Below are positions 1-23,244 of a stretch of DNA of 32,000 bases, piece by piece. The stretch's first letter is position 1. Each line of letters opens with the position of its first letter. The notes beneath the pieces are model-generated. The model saw only the letters and a list, made by a program, of their open reading frames with translations. It ran no database searches and was not told the DNA's origin. Both the position numbers and the translations under genes were made by a program. The stretch comes from Candidatus Scalinduaceae bacterium. Its GTDB lineage: Bacteria > Planctomycetota > Brocadiia > Brocadiales > Scalinduaceae. The stretch covers positions 1,837,302-1,869,301 of the forward strand of contig CBDCUS010000013.1 in assembly GCA_965222815.1 (NCBI GenBank), given 5' to 3'.

Positions 1-658
1 ATCTTTGTAATGCCCACAAACAATAATCAATAATTTGCAGACAAGGTTCGTTGGATGGATAGTTCGAAGCAACTTTATGAGATGAGCTCACAACTTTCCC
101 TGATGTTTTTTCAAAATTTGTTGTTGCCTTTAATAGCTCATTAAAAAGCGTTTTGTTTCTATCAGATTTTCCTCTTCTGGCAAATGTAACATGATTCTCT
201 TCAGCCGAATGTAACCGGTCCTTAAAAACCCTCTTTACACAAGAGTCATATATTTTGTTTTGACTATATCTCCAAGTTTTATCACGTTGGTTTTGCTTTT
301 TAACATCTTCTAGAATGCTCATTTTCCTTCTGACTATACAGTAGACTTTTATATCCAAGGAAGAGATTAATTTATAAACTTCCCTTCGAACCTCTGGGCA
401 ATCGTCTTTTGCATGAAATGACAACTTTGTTTTTGAGTGAACGGAAGGGATATCTTTAAGGTAAGGATCCGACAATATTTGTTCTCTTAAGTTGTCGAGC
501 TTATTTCTTACTTCATGAGGTTCTACAATATGAACAAGTCCCAATATAAAATAACTGGAACAACCCTCCTGCCCGATCAACACTCTTCCTCTTTTGTTGA
601 ATAAAGTCAAATCTCCGGCTTCATCCACAAAATAATATCTTTTTGTTTCTTTCACCAT
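1..658 (-). CDS. DUF3800-like protein (partial; C-terminus beyond window edge)
   Basis: Open - strand frame from ATG 658-656 to position 1; absent from the ORF track because it has no stop in the window. My translation: MVKETKRYYFVDEAGDLTLFNKRGRV...NEPCLQIIDYCLWALQR. The N-terminal YFVDExG and C-terminal LQxxD are the two acidic hallmark motifs I associate with DUF3800. Confidence 0.55.
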   Translation of the reverse strand, partial: MVKETKRYYFVDEAGDLTLFNKRGRVLIGQEGCSSYFILGLVHIVEPHEVRNKLDNLREQILSDPYLKDIPSVHSKTKLSFHAKDDCPEVRREVYKLISSLDIKVYCIVRRKMSILEDVKKQNQRDKTWRYSQNKIYDSCVKRVFKDRLHSAEENHVTFARRGKSDRNKTLFNELLKATTNFEKTSGKVVSSSHKVASNYPSNEPCLQIIDYCLWALQR

Positions 659-669
659 AATTTAAACTT

Positions 670-777
670 TTATAACAGTTAAATATACAGATACCGCATA
701 CTCCCCACTCCTTTAATTTTGACCACACATCATTGAAGTTAGGATGAGATTTGATCCGTTTCATAATTCTCTTATAC
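670..777 (-). repeat. attC-like cassette-junction repeat, copy a
   Basis: Core 701-727 (+: CTCCCCACTCCTTTAATTTTGACCACA). On the - strand it ends ...ATTTAACTG|TTATAA (GTT box at 670-676). The 5' arm GTATAAGAGAATTAT (777-763) is complementary to the 3' arm, but reads AAG where AAC is expected. It abuts the stop codon of ORF 778-963. Confidence 0.45.
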
Positions 778-963
778 CTATAAACCGTGTTCTTTCCTCC
801 CCTTAATAATAAGAGCGAATCCTATTATCATCATAAGCATACAAATTACTCCTATGGAAAATGAATTGGTATTGAGGAAATCGTCTCCAAAAATACCAAA
901 CAACATAAGAGCCATGCCAACATAACTTATTGGCTTAAAAGTATACCATTTTTTTTCAAACAC
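778..963 (-). CDS. Small membrane protein, 61 aa, two predicted TM helices (GTG start)
   Basis: ORF track. GGAG lies 8 nt upstream of the GTG. Two hydrophobic stretches: VGMALMLFGIFG and IGVICMLMMIIGFALII. It is the sole ORF between junction repeats b and a. Confidence 0.4.
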   Translation of the reverse strand: MFEKKWYTFKPISYVGMALMLFGIFGDDFLNTNSFSIGVICMLMMIIGFALIIKGRKEHGL

Positions 964-1034
964 AGTGTCTACTCCAAATAAGATTCGATAAAAGGTTAAA
1001 TTTATTGTTTCATGTTATTTTTAAATATTCTTAG

Positions 1035-1151
1035 TTTCTACAGTTAAATTCACAGACACTTTGATGTCCAAAAACCCTTCAATTTTGACCACTGCTTTTC
1101 TTGGGTGTGCTCTTTCCGTTGGTGTAAAAGTCTGCAAACCAGCTGTTTTCC
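1035..1151 (-). repeat. attC-like cassette-junction repeat, copy b
   Basis: Core 1075-1109 (+: CCCTTCAATTTTGACCACTGCTTTTCTTGGGTGTG). On the - strand GGAAAACAG (1151-1143) ... CTGTAGAAA (1043-1035). The outer arms are partly complementary (ACAG, CAGAC, TTT, CCAA blocks). The 3' end ATTTAACTG is shared with copy a. Confidence 0.45.
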
Positions 1152-1262
1152 TATTTTACGTAGAGACATTTTGTTTTAATTTTTATGTGTTAATTTGTTT
1201 TTAAAGTTAACGGCCAGTCAACCGCCATGGATAGCGGTCTGTTGGATTGCCTGGATATGGGC

Positions 1263-1916
1263 TCAACCACCCGTTTGCTTTTTGAGCATTTCTAAAAGCA
1301 ATGGAAGTGCAATGTTCTCATAAACGGACTTACCCATCGACTTGAGTGCTTCAAGTGGTTTTGCAAGGATCGGCCAACGTTGCTCCCCTTGGGATTCTTT
1401 TGCTAGTTCTTGGGCATATGTCTTCGCCTGGGAAAGTTGATCTGGTGATAGGCCGAGCGAGTCTAGATTAGAGAGAACTTGGCTCAGTTCAACATGTGTA
1501 GTTTGAGATAGCACGTTGGTAACATTCACAATGATTGGGGGCCGCGTGGATGGTATACTGGTTTCAGTAGGTCCCACTTGAATGGGAAGAACAGGAAATT
1601 CTTCTAAAGCATCTTTAAGGATAACATTAGCACAGTCGAGATCATTCTCAAGAATGGCTTGATCTTGCCGAGACCACTCTTGACTACTACCGCGATGCTT
1701 GATAACTTTAACTCGCACTTGCCAGAACTGGAGAGACGAAAAGCGGCGTACATAGTTGTGGTCTTTACCAAATAGTTCGCTAAGACTTTGGCGGGTGCGT
1801 TCCCTCCATGATCGAAAGTCGGAATCAAAGGCGTTGACTATGTTGTCGCGAAAGACTTTTATGGCATCACGGCTGTCGTTAAGTCTGTTAAGGTGAAGAC
1901 TATTTTGATCGTTCAT
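1263..1916 (-). CDS. Hypothetical protein, 217 aa (cassette ORF, no recognisable family)
   Basis: ORF track. GGAGAG lies 6 nt upstream of the ATG. It looks visibly more G+C-rich than neighbouring cassettes. I recognise no motifs. Confidence 0.6.
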   Translation of the reverse strand: MNDQNSLHLNRLNDSRDAIKVFRDNIVNAFDSDFRSWRERTRQSLSELFGKDHNYVRRFSSLQFWQVRVKVIKHRGSSQEWSRQDQAILENDLDCANVILKDALEEFPVLPIQVGPTETSIPSTRPPIIVNVTNVLSQTTHVELSQVLSNLDSLGLSPDQLSQAKTYAQELAKESQGEQRWPILAKPLEALKSMGKSVYENIALPLLLEMLKKQTGG

Positions 1917-2037
1917 ATCAGCTCTCCATTAGATTCGGGGGTTCTATCCATAGAGTTAAAAATACAATCACTATGAAATTGTAAATATGCGGCGTCTGTA
2001 TATTTCCAATATCATGACAAAGTTTTGAACAATTTCT

Positions 2038-2118
2038 GAATAACAAAAAACCTTTTCACCTACTCCCCACCCCTTCATTTTGACCACTGGCTTTCTTGGG
2101 TGGTTGGGAGTGTTGTCC
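2038..2118 (-). repeat. attC-like cassette-junction repeat, copy c
   Basis: + strand TACTCCCCACCCCTTCATTTTGACCACTGGCTTTCTTGGGTGGTTGGGAGTGTTGTCC. It forms an imperfect hairpin: CACTCCC(AA)CCACCC pairs with GGGTGG-GGAGT, with a bulged AA. A GTTATTC box on the - strand sits at 2044-2038. No convincing R'' box found. Confidence 0.4.
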
Positions 2119-2189
2119 GAACTTGGCCAATGCACCAAGAAATAAGCCCTCTCTTACTTTTTATGGTGAGCACTACCCATCAAACTTGG

Positions 2190-2666
2190 CTACAGCATGA
2201 TAAAAAGCAGCGAGATGATAATAATACCTACTAATACACAACCAAATACTGACTTACCCCATACCCAGAACCCTCTTTGTCCCCACAATTTTTCTGGTTC
2301 TGGTAAAAGTGTTTCTTTGTGTAAATAAACGTTTTTTTCAAAAAGACCAAGAGATTCTTCTATCCTTACTAGAAATTGTTTTAATACATTCAAACTGGAT
2401 GCAAACCAACCTAGTGTGATAGATGCAAATCCAACAAACACAAATAGTATAATTGCTAGCTTTAATTTAAGAGTAATATCAACTGTCTTTCCTCCATATT
2501 TTGTTATAATCCATCCTATAAATGATGTCAAAAAAGCCAAGAAGGCACCGCTAACTAGTACTCTTGTACGATGTAAAAATCGCCAATCTTCGCGGAAAGA
2601 TTTTTCGAAGTGTAGAAGAATTTCGATCTTTTTGTCAGTTTCTTTTAAATGCTCCATTTTTAACAT
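2190..2666 (-). CDS. Membrane protein, 158 aa (soluble N-terminal helix + 3 TM helices); third gene of the 3-gene cassette
   Basis: ORF track. TM stretches: VLVSGAFLAFLTSFIGWII, LAIILFVFVGFASITLGWFA and VFGCVLVGIIIISLLFIML. It starts 21 nt after the deaminase stop. Confidence 0.6.
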   Translation of the reverse strand: MLKMEHLKETDKKIEILLHFEKSFREDWRFLHRTRVLVSGAFLAFLTSFIGWIITKYGGKTVDITLKLKLAIILFVFVGFASITLGWFASSLNVLKQFLVRIEESLGLFEKNVYLHKETLLPEPEKLWGQRGFWVWGKSVFGCVLVGIIIISLLFIML

Positions 2667-2687
2667 AACATATGGTGCAATCTTTGG

Positions 2688-3134
2688 TTAGTGACTTGGT
2701 TCACCTATGTCTTCATGCCAGAGTTTTGGATTTTCCACAATAAATTGTTGCATTAAATCAATGCATTCTTTGCTGTTAACAACATTAACTAAAATCCCCC
2801 GAGACCGAAGATAGGCTTCAGGGCCTCGAAAAGTGATATTTTCCCCAACAACGATTCTTGGTATTTTGTATAGTAAAGAGGCACCGCTACACATATCGCA
2901 GGGAGATAACGTGGAATAAATAGTAGCGCGTGCAAAGTCTTTTGCTTTGAGGCGGCCCGCATTTTCCAGACAATCCATCTCCGCATGCAGGATTGCACTA
3001 TCTTGCTGTACCCTTTTGTTGTGCCCTCGGCTAACAACACGGCCTTCGATTACCAACACAGAACCGATAGGAATCCCGCCTTCTCTTAACCCAATTTTCG
3101 CTTCCTCGATAGCAATCTCTAAAAATTCATCCAT
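2688..3134 (-). CDS. Zn-dependent cytosine deaminase, CDA fold, yeast Fcy1-type
   Basis: It has the HAE...PCDMC zinc motifs. It is near-colinear with my remembered S. cerevisiae Fcy1: GGIPIGSVL, GHNKRVQ..SAILHAEMDCLENAGRL, YSTLSPCDMCSGA, PRIVVGEN, QQFIVENPKLWHEDIGE. I chose the start at ATG 3134 (AAAGGA 8 nt upstream). The ORF track extends to a TTG at 3170. Confidence 0.85.
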   Translation of the reverse strand: MDEFLEIAIEEAKIGLREGGIPIGSVLVIEGRVVSRGHNKRVQQDSAILHAEMDCLENAGRLKAKDFARATIYSTLSPCDMCSGASLLYKIPRIVVGENITFRGPEAYLRSRGILVNVVNSKECIDLMQQFIVENPKLWHEDIGEPSH

Positions 3135-3159
3135 AAATTTGTCCTTTAGTGTTAAATCT

Positions 3160-3774
3160 TTACCATCCAAAAAGAGTTTTTACAGTCTGTGTGTTGATTT
3201 CTTTTAACAATTTTTTTATTATTATACGGCGGTCCTGAATGCTTGAAGAGCGTAGGCTGCGTTTGAAAATTTTCGAGACAGTTTCAAATCTTACCATGCG
3301 AGTGTTACGAGCCTTTGCTTCTGATAGATCTTGGAAATACCCACTTTTCACTTTCCAGCTTCCATTTTGATTTTTTTGGTGGAGAAAGATGCAACCAAAA
3401 CCTTCATCCTTAATGAGTTCATTAACATTTTGAGTTTCGTAAATATATGAAATTCTATGTTTTCTATCATCGACATGCATAACAATTGACCACCAATCAT
3501 AATACTCGTTTCCATTATTGTCGAAGCTTTGACCTTTGAACTGGAGTTTTCCATTGGGTAAGAGAGTGAATTCGCAGATAGAGAACGGACGGTCTTTTAG
3601 CAAGCTATTTGCTTCGATCCACACACCTTGAAGAGAATGATAAATTTTCCAACGTTTCGTTGTTCTCCACTTTTGAAATATAAGCGATGCTACAAGGCTT
3701 GCGATTACTCCCACTACAAAGCCTATGAAATGAGAAGAAAAAAATGATACTACACCACTATTTGCTAGTTCCAT
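3160..3774 (-). CDS. N-terminally TM-anchored protein with beta-rich soluble domain and basic C-terminal tail, 204 aa; first gene of the 3-gene cassette
   Basis: ORF track. TM helix: FIGFVVGVIASLVASLIF. It is followed by an alternating beta-like pattern (GVWIEAN...FTLLPNGKLQFKGQSF...WWSIVMHV...ISYIYE...GCIFLH...SWKVKSGYF). I recognise no family. Confidence 0.6.
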   Translation of the reverse strand: MELANSGVVSFFSSHFIGFVVGVIASLVASLIFQKWRTTKRWKIYHSLQGVWIEANSLLKDRPFSICEFTLLPNGKLQFKGQSFDNNGNEYYDWWSIVMHVDDRKHRISYIYETQNVNELIKDEGFGCIFLHQKNQNGSWKVKSGYFQDLSEAKARNTRMVRFETVSKIFKRSLRSSSIQDRRIIIKKLLKEINTQTVKTLFGW

Positions 3775-3821
3775 GATAAATTATTTTGAAAAAATTCCTG
3801 TAATTCTAAATGATCTAATCA

Positions 3822-3912
3822 GTTGTCCCCCACCCCTTCAATTTTGACCACTGGTTTTTTTGGGAGGTGTTTTACAACTTGATCCGTTCTCAACATTTTA
3901 GCTTTGTTAGAC
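3822..3912 (-). repeat. attC-like cassette-junction repeat, copy d
   Basis: + strand GTTGTCCCCCACCCCTTCAATTTTGACCACTGGTTTTTTTGGGAGGTGTTTTACAAC (3822-3878), a hairpin with GTTGT/ACAAC outer pairs. A - strand GTCTAAC (3912-3906) lies 42 nt upstream of the core, at the same offset as the R''-like box of copy b. No GTT box found on the 3' side. Confidence 0.4.
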
Positions 3913-3973
3913 ATCAATATATTTGTCTTTTTCAGTCATGGTGAGTCTGACCACTATTTCATGATACTTCTCC

Positions 3974-4095
3974 TTGTAACGTTCCGCATAAGTAACCACC
4001 ACCTGTCGTATGCTTCATGAGAGGCTTTGAGCTGCAGTCTCAAAAAATATTAAATCGCAAATAATCAGGTGGTTGGCTTCATGCGTTTGTTATAT
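3974..4095 (-). other. attC site of cassette 2 (canonical)
   Basis: On the - strand: R'' ATATAAC (4095-4089) ... R' GTTACAA (3980-3974). The arms ATATAACAAACGCATGAAGCCAACCACCTG and CAGGTGGTGGTTACTTATGCGGAACGTTACAA are complementary, with a few mismatches and bulges. R'' is the exact complement of this cassette's first bases, G|TTATAT (4917-4911). Confidence 0.65.
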
Positions 4096-4190
4096 GTTTT
4101 AATCTTAACCATCTTATTCTTGGAATTTCCAAGGATTTTCTTTTTTTAATAATTTGATTAAAACTCTATCTTTTGGCTGTTTTTGTATTG

Positions 4191-4457
4191 TTAGATGCCT
4201 TTATCATTAACAGGTGACAATTTAAAGTTCATAAATTGATCTGAGCCGAATCTCTCCTTACCCTCAGCAAACTTCTCTAGTGGTACTTCCAAGCTATGAA
4301 GCATTTCAGATAGATGCTGAATAACATCTGACAGCATTAGCAAACGATTAGCCAACTCAAGTCGAACTCGATGGATTTCTCCGTCAGGTAATCGCTCTAG
4401 TAGATCTACCACAGGTCCTACAACCCGGCCATAGGCTGTTCCAAGATTCAACATCAT
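4191..4457 (-). CDS. Hypothetical 88-aa ORF; probably the C-terminal part of the upstream HEPN-like gene in the -1 frame
   Basis: ORF track. Its frame stays open upstream through the 41-nt gap and into ORF 4499-4888 (...CEKNQGAYGTLSWVVGAGEEHVTKPMMLNLGTAYGRVVGPVV). There is no separate Shine-Dalgarno sequence. Confidence 0.45.
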   Translation of the reverse strand: MMLNLGTAYGRVVGPVVDLLERLPDGEIHRVRLELANRLLMLSDVIQHLSEMLHSLEVPLEKFAEGKERFGSDQFMNFKLSPVNDKGI

Positions 4458-4498
4458 TGGCTTAGTGACATGCTCCTCTCCTGCACCGACAACCCAAC

Positions 4499-4888
4499 TT
4501 AGAGTTCCATAAGCACCTTGGTTTTTTTCGCAATACCAGCTAATTCCTGATCGAGGTGTTGAGCAGAATTACGCATATCTGTAACCACTTCAGTACGACG
4601 AATAAAAAGTTTGTAGACATGATTGTGTTTAATACCAGGCGCCATGCGAAGTACAGACCTAAATCTATGAACAGCGTCAATAAATGTCCAGGTGTGTCGT
4701 ATTGTTTTGACGAATTCTCTTGGTTGGTCAGCCTCCTTATCTTTTGAGAGTAAATGTAGCTCACTAATAAGATCGGAATATGCTTGTCCAGCCATTTCTG
4801 CAGAAAGTCGCAAAGCGTCTAAAAACACTATTTGCTTTCGGCTCAAACCATGGGGGAGACGTCTTAGAACGGAATCCGGTTTAATCAT
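4499..4888 (-). CDS. HEPN-like protein (Rx4H motif RNSAQH), 129 aa as annotated
   Basis: ORF track. R106-N-S-A-Q-H111, encoded at 4573-4556, fits the HEPN R[NHQD]xxxH ribonuclease motif and lies late in an all-helical ~125-aa region. The assignment rests on this motif and its position only. Confidence 0.5.
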   Translation of the reverse strand: MIKPDSVLRRLPHGLSRKQIVFLDALRLSAEMAGQAYSDLISELHLLSKDKEADQPREFVKTIRHTWTFIDAVHRFRSVLRMAPGIKHNHVYKLFIRRTEVVTDMRNSAQHLDQELAGIAKKTKVLMEL

Positions 4889-4910
4889 CTTTTATACGTA
4901 TTGTTGAGAC

Positions 4911-5037
4911 ATATAACGACTAAAGTGAGGTGCGCCGTATAGCAAATAAAACAAACAACATAAATAAAATAAGAAAAGAATCTGACAACGTAGAAACCGC
5001 ACGTGATAAAGGCGTCAACTCCAGTTACTCGTTAGGC
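4911..5037 (-). other. attC site of cassette 1 (canonical)
   Basis: On the - strand: R'' GCCTAAC (5037-5031) ... R' GTTATAT (4917-4911). The arms GCCTAACGAGTAACTGGAGTTGACGCCTTTAT and ATACGGCGCACCTCACTTTAGTCGTTATAT pair at about 24 of 32 positions, with single-base bulges. R'' is the exact complement of the cassette start G|TTAGGC at attI. Confidence 0.7.
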
Positions 5038-5078
5038 ATTTAATCATTGCTACTTCTATTGTTCTTTGATTGAAATTA

Positions 5079-5348
5079 TTATGAAAAATATTTTATTTTT
5101 ACTCCTGTACCGTTGCAAGAAGTGCAATTATCGCTTACAGTTTCACCAGTTGCATAGCCAGTGTTGTTGCAAACCTCACAATTTACACTGATCATTTCAT
5201 GTTCTGAAGCACCTCCAGATCCAGCAATTGCCCCATTATATCCACCCCATCCTTTACACCTAGGGCAAGTATCCCCGTTATTACCAAAAAAAGTTATTTC
5301 TCCAGTACCATTACAATCATCGCATTGGTTATCTGTCTCGTTACTCAT
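5079..5348 (-). CDS. Cysteine-rich miniprotein, 89 aa, four CxxCxGxG motifs (DnaJ zinc-finger-like); first cassette
   Basis: ORF track. Motifs: CDDCNGTG, CPRCKGWG, CEVCNNTG, CTSCNGTG. GGGAGGTGG lies 4 nt upstream of the ATG. Confidence 0.7.
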   Translation of the reverse strand: MSNETDNQCDDCNGTGEITFFGNNGDTCPRCKGWGGYNGAIAGSGGASEHEMISVNCEVCNNTGYATGETVSDNCTSCNGTGVKIKYFS

Positions 5349-5581
5349 TTTCCACCTCCCAACAAATGGTTAATTAGTTTTGGTAAATCAGAAATAAGTA
5401 TGATTTAGAAAAAATTGTAGTAACAATGAAAGCAAAAAGTCTTTAATGTTGCTACAAATATCAAGACCCTAATTTCCGTACATCAAGGAAGCACACAAAG
5501 AATCTGTTAAATTTATTTTCCATGCTATGCTCTCTGATTTTATGCCTAACAAGTTATTCTATAGTTTCCGTATAGTCACGA

Positions 5582-5609
5582 ATATTACAAAATATTTGAC
5601 TTTTTACAA
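5582..5609 (-). promoter_or_regulatory. Candidate cassette promoter Pc (TTGTAA-16-TAATAT)
   Basis: Sigma70-like hexamers on the - strand, upstream of the attI core and reading into cassette 1. It overlaps the intI promoter face to face. Confidence 0.35.
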
Positions 5610-5624
5610 GTATTTTCTTATACT
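5596..5624 (+). promoter_or_regulatory. Candidate intI promoter (TTGACT-17-TATACT)
   Basis: Near-consensus -35/-10 hexamers with a 17-nt spacer. The -10 ends 40 nt upstream of the intI ATG. Confidence 0.5.
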
Positions 5625-5664
5625 TATCTAACCGTATAGTATCTTTTTGTAATGCTATTCATCA

Positions 5665-6984
5665 ATGATAAGTATTCCATCTGAAATTTCTGTTTGTTTT
5701 AATTCTGCTTTGGCCAAAAACAGGATTCCCAAAGAGTATCAGAACCATTATAGAAAATGGTTACGATATTATCTTGATTTTTGCATAAAGTATAATTTCG
5801 AAAGCATTCATCCAGAAAGCCTACAGAACTTTTTGAGAAAGTTGGGGGAAAAACGCCAGACAAGGGAGCAGCAAAAGCAGGCTTCTCATGCAATATCTTT
5901 ATATTACAAAATAGCTCCTACCAGAACGATACCTGATCAGAAGATAAGGTCGGGTGGGTTTCAGAGTGAACAAAATGCTTCAGAAAAAGAAAAATTGTCA
6001 GGCGAAAGTCAGGCATGGCAATCAGCTCTTGATAATCTTACTTCAGAAATCAAGATACGACACTATTCACCCAAAACACTGAAGACGTATACTCTGTGGG
6101 TCAAGAAATTTCAGGCCTTTACACGATGCAAAGATACGTTGTTATTGTCTTCAAACGACGTAAAAGAGTTTTTAACTTTTCTGGCTATTAAGCGGAAGGT
6201 ATCCGCCTCAACCCAAAATCAGGCTTTTAACGCCCTTTTGTTTTTTTACCGGCATGTCATCAAAAAGGATTTTGAGAATTTAAAGGATACTCCAAGGGCT
6301 AAGAGAAAACGTTATATACCCGTTGTTTTATCACGGGAAGAGATAGATGCAATTTTTGAAAATCTTTTATATCCGTATGATTTAGTCGCCAAGCTTTTGT
6401 ATGGATGTGGATTGAGATTGTTTGAATGCGTTAACCTCCGTGTTAACAATTTTAATTTTGATGCATGTATATTAACTGTACATGACGGCAAGGGAAAAAA
6501 GGATAGAACGGTTCCTCTGCCGGAGGCAATCCTGCCGGAGCTGAAAGCACATATGAAGCGGGTAAAAAATCTCCATCAAATAGACCTGGATGCAAATTAT
6601 TCCGGTGCTTTCCTGATTGACATGTTGGATAAGAAGTACAAGAATTGTGCTAAAGAGTTGGTTTGGCAGTGGTTTTTCCCTGCAAAGACATTAACCTTAG
6701 TTCCGGAGACAGGTGAATATCGACGGTATCATCTGCATGAATCTCATGTGCAGAAAGCCATAAAACGTGCTGTTGGTAAGTCAAAGATATGTAAGCGCGC
6801 TTCTTGCCATACGTTTCGCCATAGCTTCGCCTCTCATCTGTTGAAAGCCAACTATGACATACGTACTATTCAGGAACTGCTGGGGCATAGCGATGTCAGG
6901 ACTACAATGATTTATACCCATACGATAAAGAGTCAGACAGTAAAAGAGGCAAAGAGTCCACTTGATTTCTCATCTGAAGTGTAG
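5665..6984 (+). CDS. intI: Integron integrase IntI with an extra ~118-aa N-terminal domain
   Basis: The tyrosine-recombinase catalytic set is visible: R in GCGLRLFE, K in DGKGKKDR, HxxR in HTFRHSFASHLL, H in LLGHSDV, Y in MIYTH. It carries the IntI-specific insertion GAFLIDMLDKKYKNCAKELVWQWFFPAK...YRRYHLHESHVQKAIKRAV. That insertion is colinear with my remembered IntI1 segment [27 protein letters not shown]...RRHHMYDQTFQRAFKRAV. The C-terminal SPLD is also present. Confidence 0.9.
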   Translation: MISIPSEISVCFNSALAKNRIPKEYQNHYRKWLRYYLDFCIKYNFESIHPESLQNFLRKLGEKRQTREQQKQASHAISLYYKIAPTRTIPDQKIRSGGFQSEQNASEKEKLSGESQAWQSALDNLTSEIKIRHYSPKTLKTYTLWVKKFQAFTRCKDTLLLSSNDVKEFLTFLAIKRKVSASTQNQAFNALLFFYRHVIKKDFENLKDTPRAKRKRYIPVVLSREEIDAIFENLLYPYDLVAKLLYGCGLRLFECVNLRVNNFNFDACILTVHDGKGKKDRTVPLPEAILPELKAHMKRVKNLHQIDLDANYSGAFLIDMLDKKYKNCAKELVWQWFFPAKTLTLVPETGEYRRYHLHESHVQKAIKRAVGKSKICKRASCHTFRHSFASHLLKANYDIRTIQELLGHSDVRTTMIYTHTIKSQTVKEAKSPLDFSSEV

Positions 6985-6992
6985 TTAAATAG

Positions 6993-7207
6993 CGGTTGAA
7001 CGAAAACTGACCAGATATACCCATTACAAAATGATTTTTGGAATTTCTGGGCAGGAGTTTGCGTGAAATAGGGTTCTGAAAACTAAAAATCAATTTGTGA
7101 TGGGTATTAAAGGCGCGTAGATATTTTGTAACCGGAGCGTACTCAAGTACGTGAGGATTGCGAAATTTCTACAGCAACGCAGTAGGTGGTCAGTTTTCGT
7201 TCAACCG
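6993..7207 (-). repeat. Palindromic TIR element, copy R1 (215 bp, contains nested insertion)
   Basis: Perfect 21-bp terminal inverted repeats CGGTTGAACGAAAACTGACCA (6993-7013 / 7187-7207). The interior 7110-7186 is colinear, as reverse complement, with R2 and R3. It ends 5 nt after the stop of the - strand radical SAM gene. Confidence 0.75.
7017..7107. repeat. Nested small TIR element inside R1
   Basis: ~91 bp bounded by ATACCCATTACAAA / TTTGTGATGGGTAT (13 of 14 complementary). It occupies the position where R2 and R3 have only GTAC. Confidence 0.5.
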
Positions 7208-7212
7208 GTTGG

Positions 7213-8694
7213 TTACATGACATGCAGTTCGCTCACCTTGCGAAAATGGTAACCGTAAATGGCAAGCCTTACCGACAGGGGAAACAGTTTTCTATGATGA
7301 ATAAACGTCCATAACAGAAGATCCCAAAATTGTACACGTTCCTTGCCGATGATTCCAAGATGAAAGAAAGAACGAACCAAGCCTAGGATATGATCTAGCT
7401 CTACTTTAACCTTAATCTTCGGTGCCTTGTACTCTCTCAAGAATGTTTTTACTCGCTGGTAGTAGTTTTCGGGAGAATAGATGTGTCTTAAGATACTCTT
7501 ATAGCCATCTCTGCAGGTATCAATATCCATTTTGTTAGGGATAATGTTTGTAGTTCCATCAATGTTATCACCTGACATCCGCCCAAGCAGACGTCCCTCC
7601 TTCTTTAAACGGTCGTAGAGTTTTGTACCATATGGTGCTTGCAGGAGGCCAATCATGGCCATTACGACACCGCTCTTCTGGATAAAATCAATTTGACGTT
7701 GAAAGATGGAAGGTGTATCGCTGTCAAAACCGACAATGAAACCTGCCTGTACCTGTAAGCCCGCTCGCTGAATCCGTTGTACGTCTTTAACGAGTTCACG
7801 GTTATTATTCTGTTTTTTGCCACACTCAACCAAACTATCTGTATCAGGGGTTTCTATTCCCACAAAAACCGCGTCAAAACCCGCATCGGACATCATCTGC
7901 ATCAGCGGTTCGTCATCAGCTAGATTGATTGAGACCTCTGTATGAAAGGGCAGAGGAACGTGTTCTGCTTGCCACTTAATCAGTGCAGGTAACAGCTCCT
8001 TCTTGAGGGCCCTTTTGTTTCCAATGAGATTGTCATCAACAAAGAAGACTGGGCCACGCCACCCCAGATCATAAAAACTATTTAACTCGTTGATAATTTG
8101 TTCAACAGTTTTTGTGCGTGTTCGTTGTCCAAAGAGGGCAGTTACATCGCAAAATTCACATTGGTAGGGGCAACCCCGCGTATACTGTATACTCAATGAT
8201 GCGTACCGTTTCATATCAATCAGATCCCATTGAGGAGCAGGTGTTTCACGAATGTCAGGATATTGGGTCGTCGTATAAATCCGTTTAGGACAACCATTTT
8301 CCAAGTCTTCCAGAAACCCTGGAAGTGTCAACTCTGCTTCATTGAGGATAAAGTGATCAACGTCCTCAAATTGGTTATGTTCACTCGTAAATAGTGGTCC
8401 TCCGGCAACCACCGTAACACCCGCTTTTTTGCACCTTTCAATTAATTGGCGGGCCGAAGTTCGTTGTATGACCATACTCCCAATAAAGACATAATCCGCC
8501 CATGCAAGATCTTGATCCATAAGCTTCGAAACGTTGACATCAATAAGACGTTTTGACCAACTTGACGGAAGCATTGCAGCAACAGTCAGCAATCCCAATG
8601 GAGGGAAGGAAGCCTTTTTTCGGGTAAACTTGAGGGCGTGTTTGAAACTCCAAAATGTATCGGGAAACTCTGGGTATAGAAATAGTATGTTCAT
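7213..8694 (-). CDS. B12-binding-domain radical SAM protein (DUF4070-type C-terminus)
   Basis: It has an N-terminal cobalamin-binding-like region (ILFLYPEFP...PPLGLLTVAAML), the CxxxCxxC cluster motif in YTRGCPYQCEFCD, and is 493 aa long. Confidence 0.75.
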   Translation of the reverse strand: MNILFLYPEFPDTFWSFKHALKFTRKKASFPPLGLLTVAAMLPSSWSKRLIDVNVSKLMDQDLAWADYVFIGSMVIQRTSARQLIERCKKAGVTVVAGGPLFTSEHNQFEDVDHFILNEAELTLPGFLEDLENGCPKRIYTTTQYPDIRETPAPQWDLIDMKRYASLSIQYTRGCPYQCEFCDVTALFGQRTRTKTVEQIINELNSFYDLGWRGPVFFVDDNLIGNKRALKKELLPALIKWQAEHVPLPFHTEVSINLADDEPLMQMMSDAGFDAVFVGIETPDTDSLVECGKKQNNNRELVKDVQRIQRAGLQVQAGFIVGFDSDTPSIFQRQIDFIQKSGVVMAMIGLLQAPYGTKLYDRLKKEGRLLGRMSGDNIDGTTNIIPNKMDIDTCRDGYKSILRHIYSPENYYQRVKTFLREYKAPKIKVKVELDHILGLVRSFFHLGIIGKERVQFWDLLLWTFIHHRKLFPLSVRLAIYGYHFRKVSELHVM

Positions 8695-23045: not shown

Positions 23046-23170
23046 GTGTTTATCGAAAATCACCCATCTACCGCGTTGCTGTAACAATTTCGTAATCCTC
23101 AAGTACTATGGTACGATCCGGTTACGAATTTGTTACGCATCTTGTACCTGGCTAGTTTTGGTTCAAACAC
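23046..23170 (+). repeat. Palindromic TIR element, copy R2 (125 bp)
   Basis: Colinear with R3 across its whole length. The termini are degenerate: GTGTTTATCGAAAATCACCCA / TGGCTAGTTTTGGTTCAAACAC. It starts 45 nt after the CPBP stop. Confidence 0.7.
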
Positions 23171-23244
23171 AGGGTTTTCATTCAAGCACTAATTAGTTAA
23201 AAGGTTACCTTTTTAGCATTTCATGAAAAATTGATGAGGATCAT

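Follow-up and report, generated by a model that had tools for sequence, protein, structure and literature searches.

The DNA considered in the current analysis is a stretch of 32,000 nucleotides (nt), referred to here as the window, from a Candidatus Scalinduaceae bacterium of the Planctomycetota (contig CBDCUS010000013.1, positions 1,837,302 to 1,869,301). It carries, next to an integron integrase, an array of gene cassettes that includes a block of three genes on the minus strand, referred to as genes 1, 2 and 3 in the order of reading, of which the second encodes an Fcy1-type cytosine deaminase (Table 1). Genes 1 and 2 are separated by 25 nt and genes 2 and 3 by 21 nt. The ATG of gene 2 is preceded at 8 nt by AAGGA, and a TTG at 3170, which overlaps the end of gene 1, offers an alternative start. 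This layout, and the absence from the block of the repeats that recur at the junctions of the array, had been described in an original prediction made from the letters of the window and a list of its open reading frames (ORFs); both points agree with our re-reading of the sequence. In the current analysis gene 1 and the deaminase have been identified as a conserved pair, gene 3 appears as a cassette gene of separate origin, and the pair looks like an undescribed candidate phage-defence pair.

The conserved pair and its deaminase

Gene 1 directly followed by a full-length Fcy1-type deaminase has been identified in eight independent places besides the window. They are Simiduia curdlanivorans (L001), two metagenome assemblies (L002 and L003), a JGI metagenome (L004), a Logan assembly (L005), metagenome-assembled genomes of Planctomycetota (L009) and Acidobacteriota (L010), and a soil metagenome (L012) with a version of gene 1 in which a TIR domain precedes the barrel. 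The pair is spread across at least four bacterial phyla, the sources including Gammaproteobacteria, Planctomycetota and Acidobacteriota. Five close relatives of gene 1 were found in 5.8 billion clusters, and a few more came from scans of individual loci. Every relative of the same architecture, at 45-76% identity to gene 1, directly precedes an Fcy1-type deaminase, and the paired deaminases are 61-91% identical to gene 2. The two genes overlap by as much as 8 nt or lie up to 27 nt apart, the overlapping ORFs being those of L005 and L009.

The flanks of the pair are unrelated at each locus. At all loci tested, G+C is lower in the pair than in its flanks (0.51 as against 0.68 in L009), which fits the horizontal spread of the pair as a unit. 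No relatives were found in the viral contigs of IMG/VR. Between the window and its closest relative, L002, gene 1 has a ratio of non-synonymous to synonymous substitution rates (dN/dS) of 0.33 and gene 2 one of 0.13, and both genes are therefore under purifying selection, though gene 3 has been lost in L002. The comparison of gene order that the original prediction had called for thus reveals a conserved association of gene 1 with the deaminase that does not extend to gene 3. Gene 1 and the deaminase are not chance neighbours, as had been suspected, and the functional unit is very probably formed by these two genes, as an operon carried as integron cargo.

The product of gene 2 is predicted from its sequence to be a full-length and catalytically intact cytosine deaminase of the Fcy1 type, with the CDA fold. 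It matches the yeast cytosine deaminase (PDB entries 1ysd and 1uaq) over its full length, residues 5-145, with an E-value of 2e-44 and 53% identity to yeast Fcy1, in keeping with the assignment made earlier by eye from the HAE and PCDMC motifs. The match to PF00383 has an E-value of 7.8e-21, and the zinc motifs H-x-E and P-C-x-x-C are present as LHAEMD and SPCDMC. The residues H50, E52, C79, C82, N39, I23, F102, W139 and D142 are invariant in 8/8 paired orthologs. The yeast counterparts that were tested, W152 and D155 of the lid and N51, I33 and F114 of the base-binding site, are conserved, so that gene 2 agrees with Fcy1 in its zinc ligands, catalytic Glu, base-binding Asn, Ile and Phe and C-terminal Trp/Asp lid. 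The C-terminal lid of Fcy1 is known to close the active site around a free base. Since the lid residues and the base-contacting residues are conserved, gene 2 likely acts on a free base as well, and its predicted substrate is most likely cytosine or a close free-base analogue rather than nucleotides or nucleic acids. Fcy1 (EC 3.5.4.1) is a stand-alone salvage enzyme, whereas gene 2 is coupled in an operon to an effector-like membrane protein and is carried on mobile DNA. The assignment of gene 2 as an anti-phage deoxycytidine triphosphate (dCTP) deaminase (NF041025) was tried and rejected, the match scoring 28.5 bits against a cutoff of 400 over 45 residues around the zinc motif; a PADLOC dCTPase match (E about 7e-7) covers 38 residues, likewise the zinc motif only.

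The barrel protein and its wider family

The AlphaFold2 model of the gene 1 product (predicted local distance difference test, pLDDT, 83.6; predicted template modelling score 0.74) starts with one long helix at the N-terminus, which is followed by eight antiparallel strands and by helices at the C-terminus. A single hydrophobic transmembrane helix spans approximately residues 8-33, and the strands form an eight-stranded up-and-down barrel at approximately residues 50-162. The barrel is predicted to be cytoplasmic, because the basic stretch KWRTTKRWK directly follows the helix and the positive-inside rule then places it on that side of the membrane. A Foldseek search of the predicted viral structures of BFVD with this model gave a single significant match, which is also the top one, to a protein annotated as 'SMODS-associating 2TM beta-strand rich effector domain' (S-2TMbeta; E-value 5e-8, TM-score 0.55/0.51, root mean square deviation 3.8 Å over 157 columns). 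On the strength of the model, gene 1 is somewhat more probably S-2TMbeta-like than otherwise. No match to gene 1 was obtained in Pfam, NCBIfam, PADLOC or PHROGs, and a profile of the gene 1 family has no match among the PDB sequences even at an E-value of 10.

A profile search of 1.84 billion representatives yielded 167 relatives of gene 1, each representing a cluster. A broad alignment of 19 sequences of the family proved too diverse for a search of loci. Most of the relatives have about 190-230 amino acids (aa) and one or two transmembrane helices before the barrel; the distant relatives P0061, P0063, P0072 and P0094 have two. The membrane segment is replaced by an EAD11 domain in seven of the relatives tested (P0025, P0026, P0031, P0033, P0068, P0146 and P0147), by HTH_3 in P0051 and by TIR_2 in P0010 (31.7 bits, cutoff 28). 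EAD11 serves as an adaptor in NTPase-based conflict systems (PMC7159879). The gene of P0010 lies in L012, and this TIR-barrel gene still directly precedes a deaminase of the same type. The exchange of a membrane helix for a TIR domain, with barrel and partner kept, is the effector-module pattern of CBASS, Pycsar and Thoeris. This swapping of modules therefore suggests that the barrel would be the regulatory part of the protein and the N-terminus the killing part.

The partner is exchanged as well. P0157, which is 54% identical to gene 1 and thus as close to it as the deaminase-linked homologs, precedes a protein of the CBU_0592 family (NF047864) instead. This partner is a three-helix membrane protein of about 80 aa that scores 32-45 bits against a cutoff of 25, and its only match among the PDB sequences is a SemiSWEET transporter, which is non-significant (E-value 1.1). 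Nothing on CBU_0592 was found in our search of the literature. The distant relatives P0017, P0158 and P0162 also have a CBU_0592 partner, and so does the EAD11-barrel gene P0033, which directly precedes one. Across the loci the gene downstream of the barrel gene encodes a deaminase, a CBU_0592 protein or DUF3253. Among the called neighbours in L001-L005 and L013-L022, for which precomputed Pfam tables were used, no cyclase is recorded; in L009, L010 and L012 the screen of neighbouring genes was confined to homologs of genes 1, 2 and 3. PADLOC, PHROGs and NCBIfam gave nothing for the relatives of gene 1 or of gene 3.

The loci with a CBU_0592 partner resemble defence islands, with Mrr nucleases, an nSTAND-TIR protein, toxin-antitoxin pairs, a type I methylase and restriction-modification genes. 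In two unrelated loci a SIR2 protein and a HerA-like ATPase are encoded just upstream of the barrel/CBU_0592 pair (SIR2_2 and DUF87/HerA-like ATPase, at 1903-4802 of L013 and 262-3856 of L016). The barrel proteins of these two loci are distantly related, with 54% and 28% identity to gene 1, respectively. This arrangement may reflect a functional link or may be no more than a coincidence between defence islands. L013 also carries an IntI-like integrase near the pair; attC-like boxes lie on either side of this pair and none between its two genes, their folding being uneven (z-scores -2.5 and -0.3). The family of gene 1 thus has interchangeable N-terminal modules and interchangeable partners, and is often found in defence contexts.

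Gene 3 and the cassette array

The protein encoded by gene 3 has three hydrophobic helices, with no family match in Pfam, PADLOC, NCBIfam (nothing above noise) or PHROGs. The view that neither membrane protein of the block has a recognisable family therefore still applies to gene 3, while gene 1 has since acquired the fold match to an S-2TMbeta-annotated protein. The structural check proposed for both was informative for the 204-aa protein of gene 1; for the 158-aa protein AlphaFold2 gives three long helices in a poor model (pLDDT 64.5), and a fold search with it was ruled out for this reason. The alignment with its homolog begins at M4, which makes the ATG at 2657 its likely start, and the gap to gene 2 would then be about 30 nt.

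Searches with tblastn found gene 3 absent from the other pair-bearing loci (L001, L004, L005, L009, L010 and L012), a stump in L002 excepted. In L002 (1575-2670) only the first 14 codons of gene 3 are left after the deaminase gene, and the sequences then diverge. A C-terminal fragment of an IS3-family transposase lies about 600 nt past the stump, which suggests the loss of gene 3 by deletion mediated by an insertion sequence. The sole homolog of gene 3, P0007, has 56% identity to it and is encoded by itself on each of three short contigs (L006-L008), where no deaminase gene precedes it. In L006 it forms a canonical single-gene cassette, which opens with G/TTATGT (378-384) and ends with an attC site of 58 nt (865-922) whose R'' box, ACATAAC, is the exact complement of GTTATGT.

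Traces of a similar cassette are seen in the window. GTTATGT at 2663-2669 matches the opening of the L006 cassette and overlaps the first ATG of gene 3, and CACTAAC, 17 nt upstream of it, overlaps the stop codon of gene 2. At 31 nt this element is too short to fold (z-score +1.4), and its sequence suggests that an attC has collapsed here, with the fusion of two cassettes as the result. The L006 attC starts with CTCACATAACAAGT, to which CTCACCATAAAAAGT, downstream of gene 3, can be aligned. The candidate degenerate attC found there (2116-2166) agrees in its R'' box with the complement of GTTATGT at 5/7 positions, and its fold is non-significant (z-score -0.79). Around the block, candidate attC sites are present only as such remnants. 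Judging from its sequence relationships, gene 3 appears to be a formerly independent membrane-protein cassette, a hitch-hiker outside the conserved pair, and the collapse of the intervening attC would have welded it on. The proposal of a three-gene functional unit is accordingly not supported, since gene 3 never co-occurs with the pair elsewhere, apart from the stump in L002, and its homolog stands alone.

The junction repeats had been taken as the boundaries of the cassettes. They are about 40 nt long with the core AGTGGTCAAAATTGAAGGGGTGGGGAG, read in the direction of the genes, and copies farther along the array lie at 1065-1105 and 703-726. Within the window they are confined to the cassette array. 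No matches were obtained in shuffled sequence, where none are expected by chance, and the repeats are absent from the 22 other loci fetched and from Rfam. Eight folds (four repeats, both strands) gave no stable hairpin, with z-scores of -0.19 to +1.77 against shuffles; the true attC of L006 has a z-score of -5.2 in the same comparison. As they lack a hairpin and fail the test of R'/R'' complementarity that other sites of the array pass, the repeats were rejected as attC sites. They are sequence-conserved elements that have not been shown to be attC sites, and the claim that they bound the cassettes is not upheld.

A scan with the canonical attC pattern (RYYYAAC...GTTRRRY) found a single site, at 4446-4564, which lies inside coding sequence and is probably spurious. 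A sliding-window hairpin scan and relaxed scans for R boxes gave partial attC candidates only. Two of these are attC-like hairpins upstream of the block (Table 1), and the R' box GTTATAT of the one is perfectly reverse-complementary to the R'' box ATATAAC of the other. An integron cassette recombines via its own attC, so that matching boxes of this kind are as expected if 3980-4916 is one cassette. It would be a two-gene cassette, with ORFs of 129 aa (4499-4888) and 88 aa (4191-4457) that have no significant family match. In the 416-nt gap upstream of gene 1, a short R''-R' pair (GTCTAAC, 11 nt, GTTGAGA; 3887-3913) resembles the site at 2663-2693, both opening with CTAAC(C)AAAG, and may be another decayed attC.

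The integrase gene encodes a genuine integron integrase, IntI, with 390.8 bits to TIGR02249 against a cutoff of 265. This match spans only residues 122-434 of 439, leaving an N-terminal extension of about 120 aa; the IntI-like protein of L013 is similarly long (449 aa). All the cassette genes lie on the strand opposite to intI, and the array adjoins the integrase gene and is divergent from it. The remaining window carries core genes, including alaS, plsX, fabH, fabF, a sulfate permease gene and two tRNA genes. With IntI beside the array and core genes elsewhere, the block belongs to the cargo of a chromosomal integron. Rfam gave no RNA family in positions 1-7000 and the two tRNAs only in the whole window, and scans for promoters and terminators gave counts at chance level.

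A few other features of the window are recorded here. A cassette protein of 217 aa (1263-1916) has a weak PADLOC match to the candidate family PDC-S35 (E-value 3.5e-6). The B12-binding radical-SAM/DUF4070 gene (7213-8694), which adjoins intI, matches PADLOC PDC-M51A (E-value 2.7e-12). An intergenic repeat with GTAC...GTAC palindromes and no Rfam match is present in three copies (7140-7215, 23054-23171 and 29614-29732); two of them, about 120 nt long, have a similarity of about 78-84%, and the shorter third adjoins the radical-SAM gene.

Table 1. Features of the three-gene block and of the adjoining cassette array (positions in the window)
Feature	Position	Strand	Remarks
Gene 1	3160-3774	minus	204 aa; barrel protein with a membrane anchor
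Gene 2	2688-3134	minus	148 aa, counted from ATG; Fcy1-type cytosine deaminase
Gene 3	2190-2666	minus	158 aa; probable true start at 2657 gives 155 aa
Putative collapsed attC-like remnant	2663-2693	minus	CACTAAC, 17 nt, GTTATGT; between genes 2 and 3
Candidate degenerate attC of gene 3 cassette	2116-2166	minus	CCATAAA ... GTTCGGA
Junction repeat d	3824-3864	minus	Upstream of gene 1; repeat family D1/D3; hairpin z-score -0.2
Junction repeat c	2060-2100	minus	Downstream of gene 3; repeat family D1/D3; z-score 0.0 to +0.7
attC-like hairpin	4911-5037		GCCTAAC...GTTATAT; R' box GTTATAT at 4917-4911
attC-like hairpin	3974-4095	minus	ATATAAC...GTTACAA; fold z-score about -2.0; R'' box at 4089-4095; would close the two-gene cassette before it
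Integron integrase IntI	5665-6984	plus	439 aa; TIGR02249; Pfam Phage_int_SAM_4 and Phage_integrase
DUF3800 protein cassette	2-655		At left edge of window, runs off the end

Function of the pair

Integron cassettes are known to carry anti-phage defence systems (doi 10.1101/2024.07.02.601719; PMC12614218). The block is similar to multi-gene or fused defence cassettes in lying in an array beside IntI with several genes and no working attC between them. It differs from them in that its outer boundaries are not canonical attC hairpins, and in that gene 3 has apparently been joined through decay of an attC and not through function.

The closest parallel to the pair itself is found in Cap15 of CBASS and OptE of Panoptes, in which a barrel binds a cyclic nucleotide and the inner membrane is disrupted (PMC12657218). 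The Panoptes operon consists of two genes, for a minimal enzyme and for an S-2TMbeta effector, and works by inhibitory signalling (PMC12657218). Gene 1, as modelled, shares with Cap15 and OptE the N-terminal membrane helix followed by a small cytoplasmic barrel in a total of about 200 aa, as well as a compact operon with one small enzyme, and the family of gene 1 includes forms with two transmembrane helices. Gene 1 itself differs in having one helix and not two, in lacking a sequence match to Pfam S_2TMBeta, and in its partner, which is a cytosine deaminase or a CBU_0592 protein and not a CD-NTase/SMODS protein or mCpol. Kongming provides a parallel for the enzyme: there the immune signal deoxyinosine triphosphate (dITP) is made by an adenosine deaminase acting on deoxyadenosine monophosphate together with phage kinases, and acts on a SIR2 NADase complex (doi 10.1101/2024.12.20.629578). 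In both cases, as proposed here for the pair, a nucleobase deaminase encoded by the system would make or control the signal that activates a cell-killing effector. The pair differs in its free-base cytosine deaminase and in its barrel effector, linked to a membrane helix or a TIR domain; no homology between the two systems is claimed.

We consider that the pair is best read as a small-molecule-gated abortive-infection system, with the deaminase controlling how much of a pyrimidine ligand is present; the probability of this reading is roughly 45%. Gene 1 would be a cytoplasmic eight-stranded barrel tethered to the inner membrane by its single N-terminal helix, and the deaminase would occupy the place that is held by a nucleotide cyclase or mCpol in the Cap15 and OptE systems. 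The barrel would read a small pyrimidine ligand of the cytosine or uracil type. The deaminase, acting constitutively, would set the level of this ligand, either eliminating an activator or producing an inhibitor, in a manner comparable to the inverse signalling of Panoptes; this role is favoured over synthesis triggered by infection because gene 2 encodes a minimal deaminase that lacks a sensor domain. Infection, or a counter-measure of the phage, would shift the ligand level, and the N-terminal module, which is the membrane helix here and TIR in one relative, would then kill or arrest the cell. Of the functions put forward in the original prediction, defence or abortive infection, with a membrane effector linked to base deamination, is the better supported, and detoxification is disfavoured by the TIR and EAD11 domains that stand in for the membrane helix in relatives. 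The odds of a defence function for the pair are even in our estimate, and the mechanism of ligand control is doubtful.

A number of observations weigh against this reading. The link to S-2TMbeta is one Foldseek match, to a structure that is itself predicted. The best 50 matches of gene 1 among PDB structures are all weak (best E-value 0.01) and mostly generic barrels of the calycin type, such as lipocalins and avidins, with no Cap15 entry recognised among them. At an E-value of up to 0.1 neither gene 1 nor 30 of its relatives matches Pfam S_2TMBeta, and the second transmembrane helix of S-2TMbeta is missing from gene 1. No PADLOC model matches gene 1 or gene 2 convincingly. Without the closest pair, the divergence of gene 1 is uncorrelated with that of gene 2 (r = 0.04, with a star-like phylogeny), so that co-evolution of the two genes is not demonstrated. 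The contexts of the pair in L001, L005 and L010 are not obvious defence islands. The TIR-barrel ORF of L012 (191-1102) has an in-frame stop at 914-916, after which the frame of the barrel continues; a pseudogene, recoding or an error of sequencing may lie behind this. The active site of Fcy1 is closed by its lid and takes free bases, and we know of no free pyrimidine base that serves as an immune signal. The proposed defence role is drawn wholly from sequence and predicted structure.

The main rival explanation, which is disfavoured, is pyrimidine salvage or the detoxification of an antimetabolite. The deaminase would convert cytosine or a toxic analogue to the uracil form, gene 1 would be a membrane-tethered, lipocalin-like protein that captures the base or hands it over, and the CBU_0592 partner of the relatives would be a semiSWEET-like transporter of the same compound. 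The 53% identity to a salvage enzyme, with all the residues that bind the free base kept, is as expected from such a role, and so is the resemblance of the barrel to ligand-binding calycins; the SemiSWEET protein as best, if non-significant, PDB sequence match of the CBU_0592 partner and the TetR, MarR or isochorismatase genes in the neighbourhood of the pair in L005 would be in line with it, and integron cassettes often carry resistance functions. A passive binding protein does not explain the fusions of the barrel with TIR, EAD11 and HTH domains, and the only significant fold match is to an S-2TMbeta effector. In addition, the versions with a CBU_0592 partner sit in defence islands, and the barrel is predicted to be cytoplasmic and not periplasmic. 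This explanation is considered unlikely.

An addiction module of the toxin-antitoxin kind is quite unlikely. Gene 1 would here be a membrane toxin, neutralised through direct binding by the deaminase or by the three-helix protein, and the pair would stabilise its cassette without sensing phages. The tight operon with its overlapping ORFs in two loci, the replaceable partner, the toxin-antitoxin genes that neighbour the pair in L009 and the barrel gene in L017, and the abundance of such cassettes in integron arrays agree with it. The invariant catalytic and substrate-binding residues and the low dN/dS of gene 2 point instead to selection on an enzyme activity and not on binding alone, and the order of toxin first and antitoxin second would be unusual.

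A module of three genes, in which gene 3 works with gene 1 and the deaminase, is very unlikely. The three genes are co-oriented and tightly packed, the stump in L002 implies that the triple arrangement predates the split between L002 and the window, and a three-helix membrane protein is a frequent partner among the relatives of gene 1. Gene 3 is, as described above, missing after the pair in six other loci, its homolog is a stand-alone cassette bounded by attC, and the junction of genes 2 and 3 carries the putative attC remnant. After the loss of gene 3 in L002 the other two genes remained intact and under purifying selection, and in an hhalign alignment gene 3 is unrelated to the CBU_0592 partners (probability 0.2%). 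Highly improbable is a deaminase that is itself the effector and depletes nucleotides, like the anti-phage dCTP deaminases, with gene 1 as the sensor: the weak local matches to that family at the zinc motif are in its favour, and it is opposed by a score far below the cutoff, by the small size of a free-base enzyme with a site-closing lid, by pyrimidine metabolism, in which the loss of free cytosine would leave a phage with its supply of nucleotides, and by the exchange of membrane helix and TIR, which marks the barrel protein as the effector.

With respect to integron cargo, the block teaches that tight packing and the lack of internal repeats do not define a functional unit, and that decay of an attC can weld unrelated cassettes together. 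Gene 2 is in addition a bacterial homolog, at 53% identity, of the enzyme used in prodrug therapy with 5-fluorocytosine. The family of gene 1 has no model in PADLOC 2.0 and may be an unrecognised and very compact defence family. Our search of the literature found no paper that links a cytosine deaminase and S-2TMbeta proteins in this way, and the pair, if it is a defence system, would be the first in which an effector of the Cap15/OptE type is joined to a nucleobase deaminase. A still wider proposal, improbable at present, is that of an undescribed two-gene defence family that signals by a free pyrimidine base and not by a cyclic nucleotide, and in which a Panoptes-style guard, a barrel effector of the Cap15/OptE kind gated by the cytosine/uracil signal that a housekeeping-type cytosine deaminase would set all the time, is combined with interchangeable killing modules (transmembrane helix, TIR or EAD11) and interchangeable ligand-control partners (the deaminase or the semiSWEET-like CBU_0592 protein). 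The pair itself, if it acts in defence, would extend the chemistry of bacterial immune signalling beyond cyclic nucleotides, ADP-ribose derivatives and dITP.

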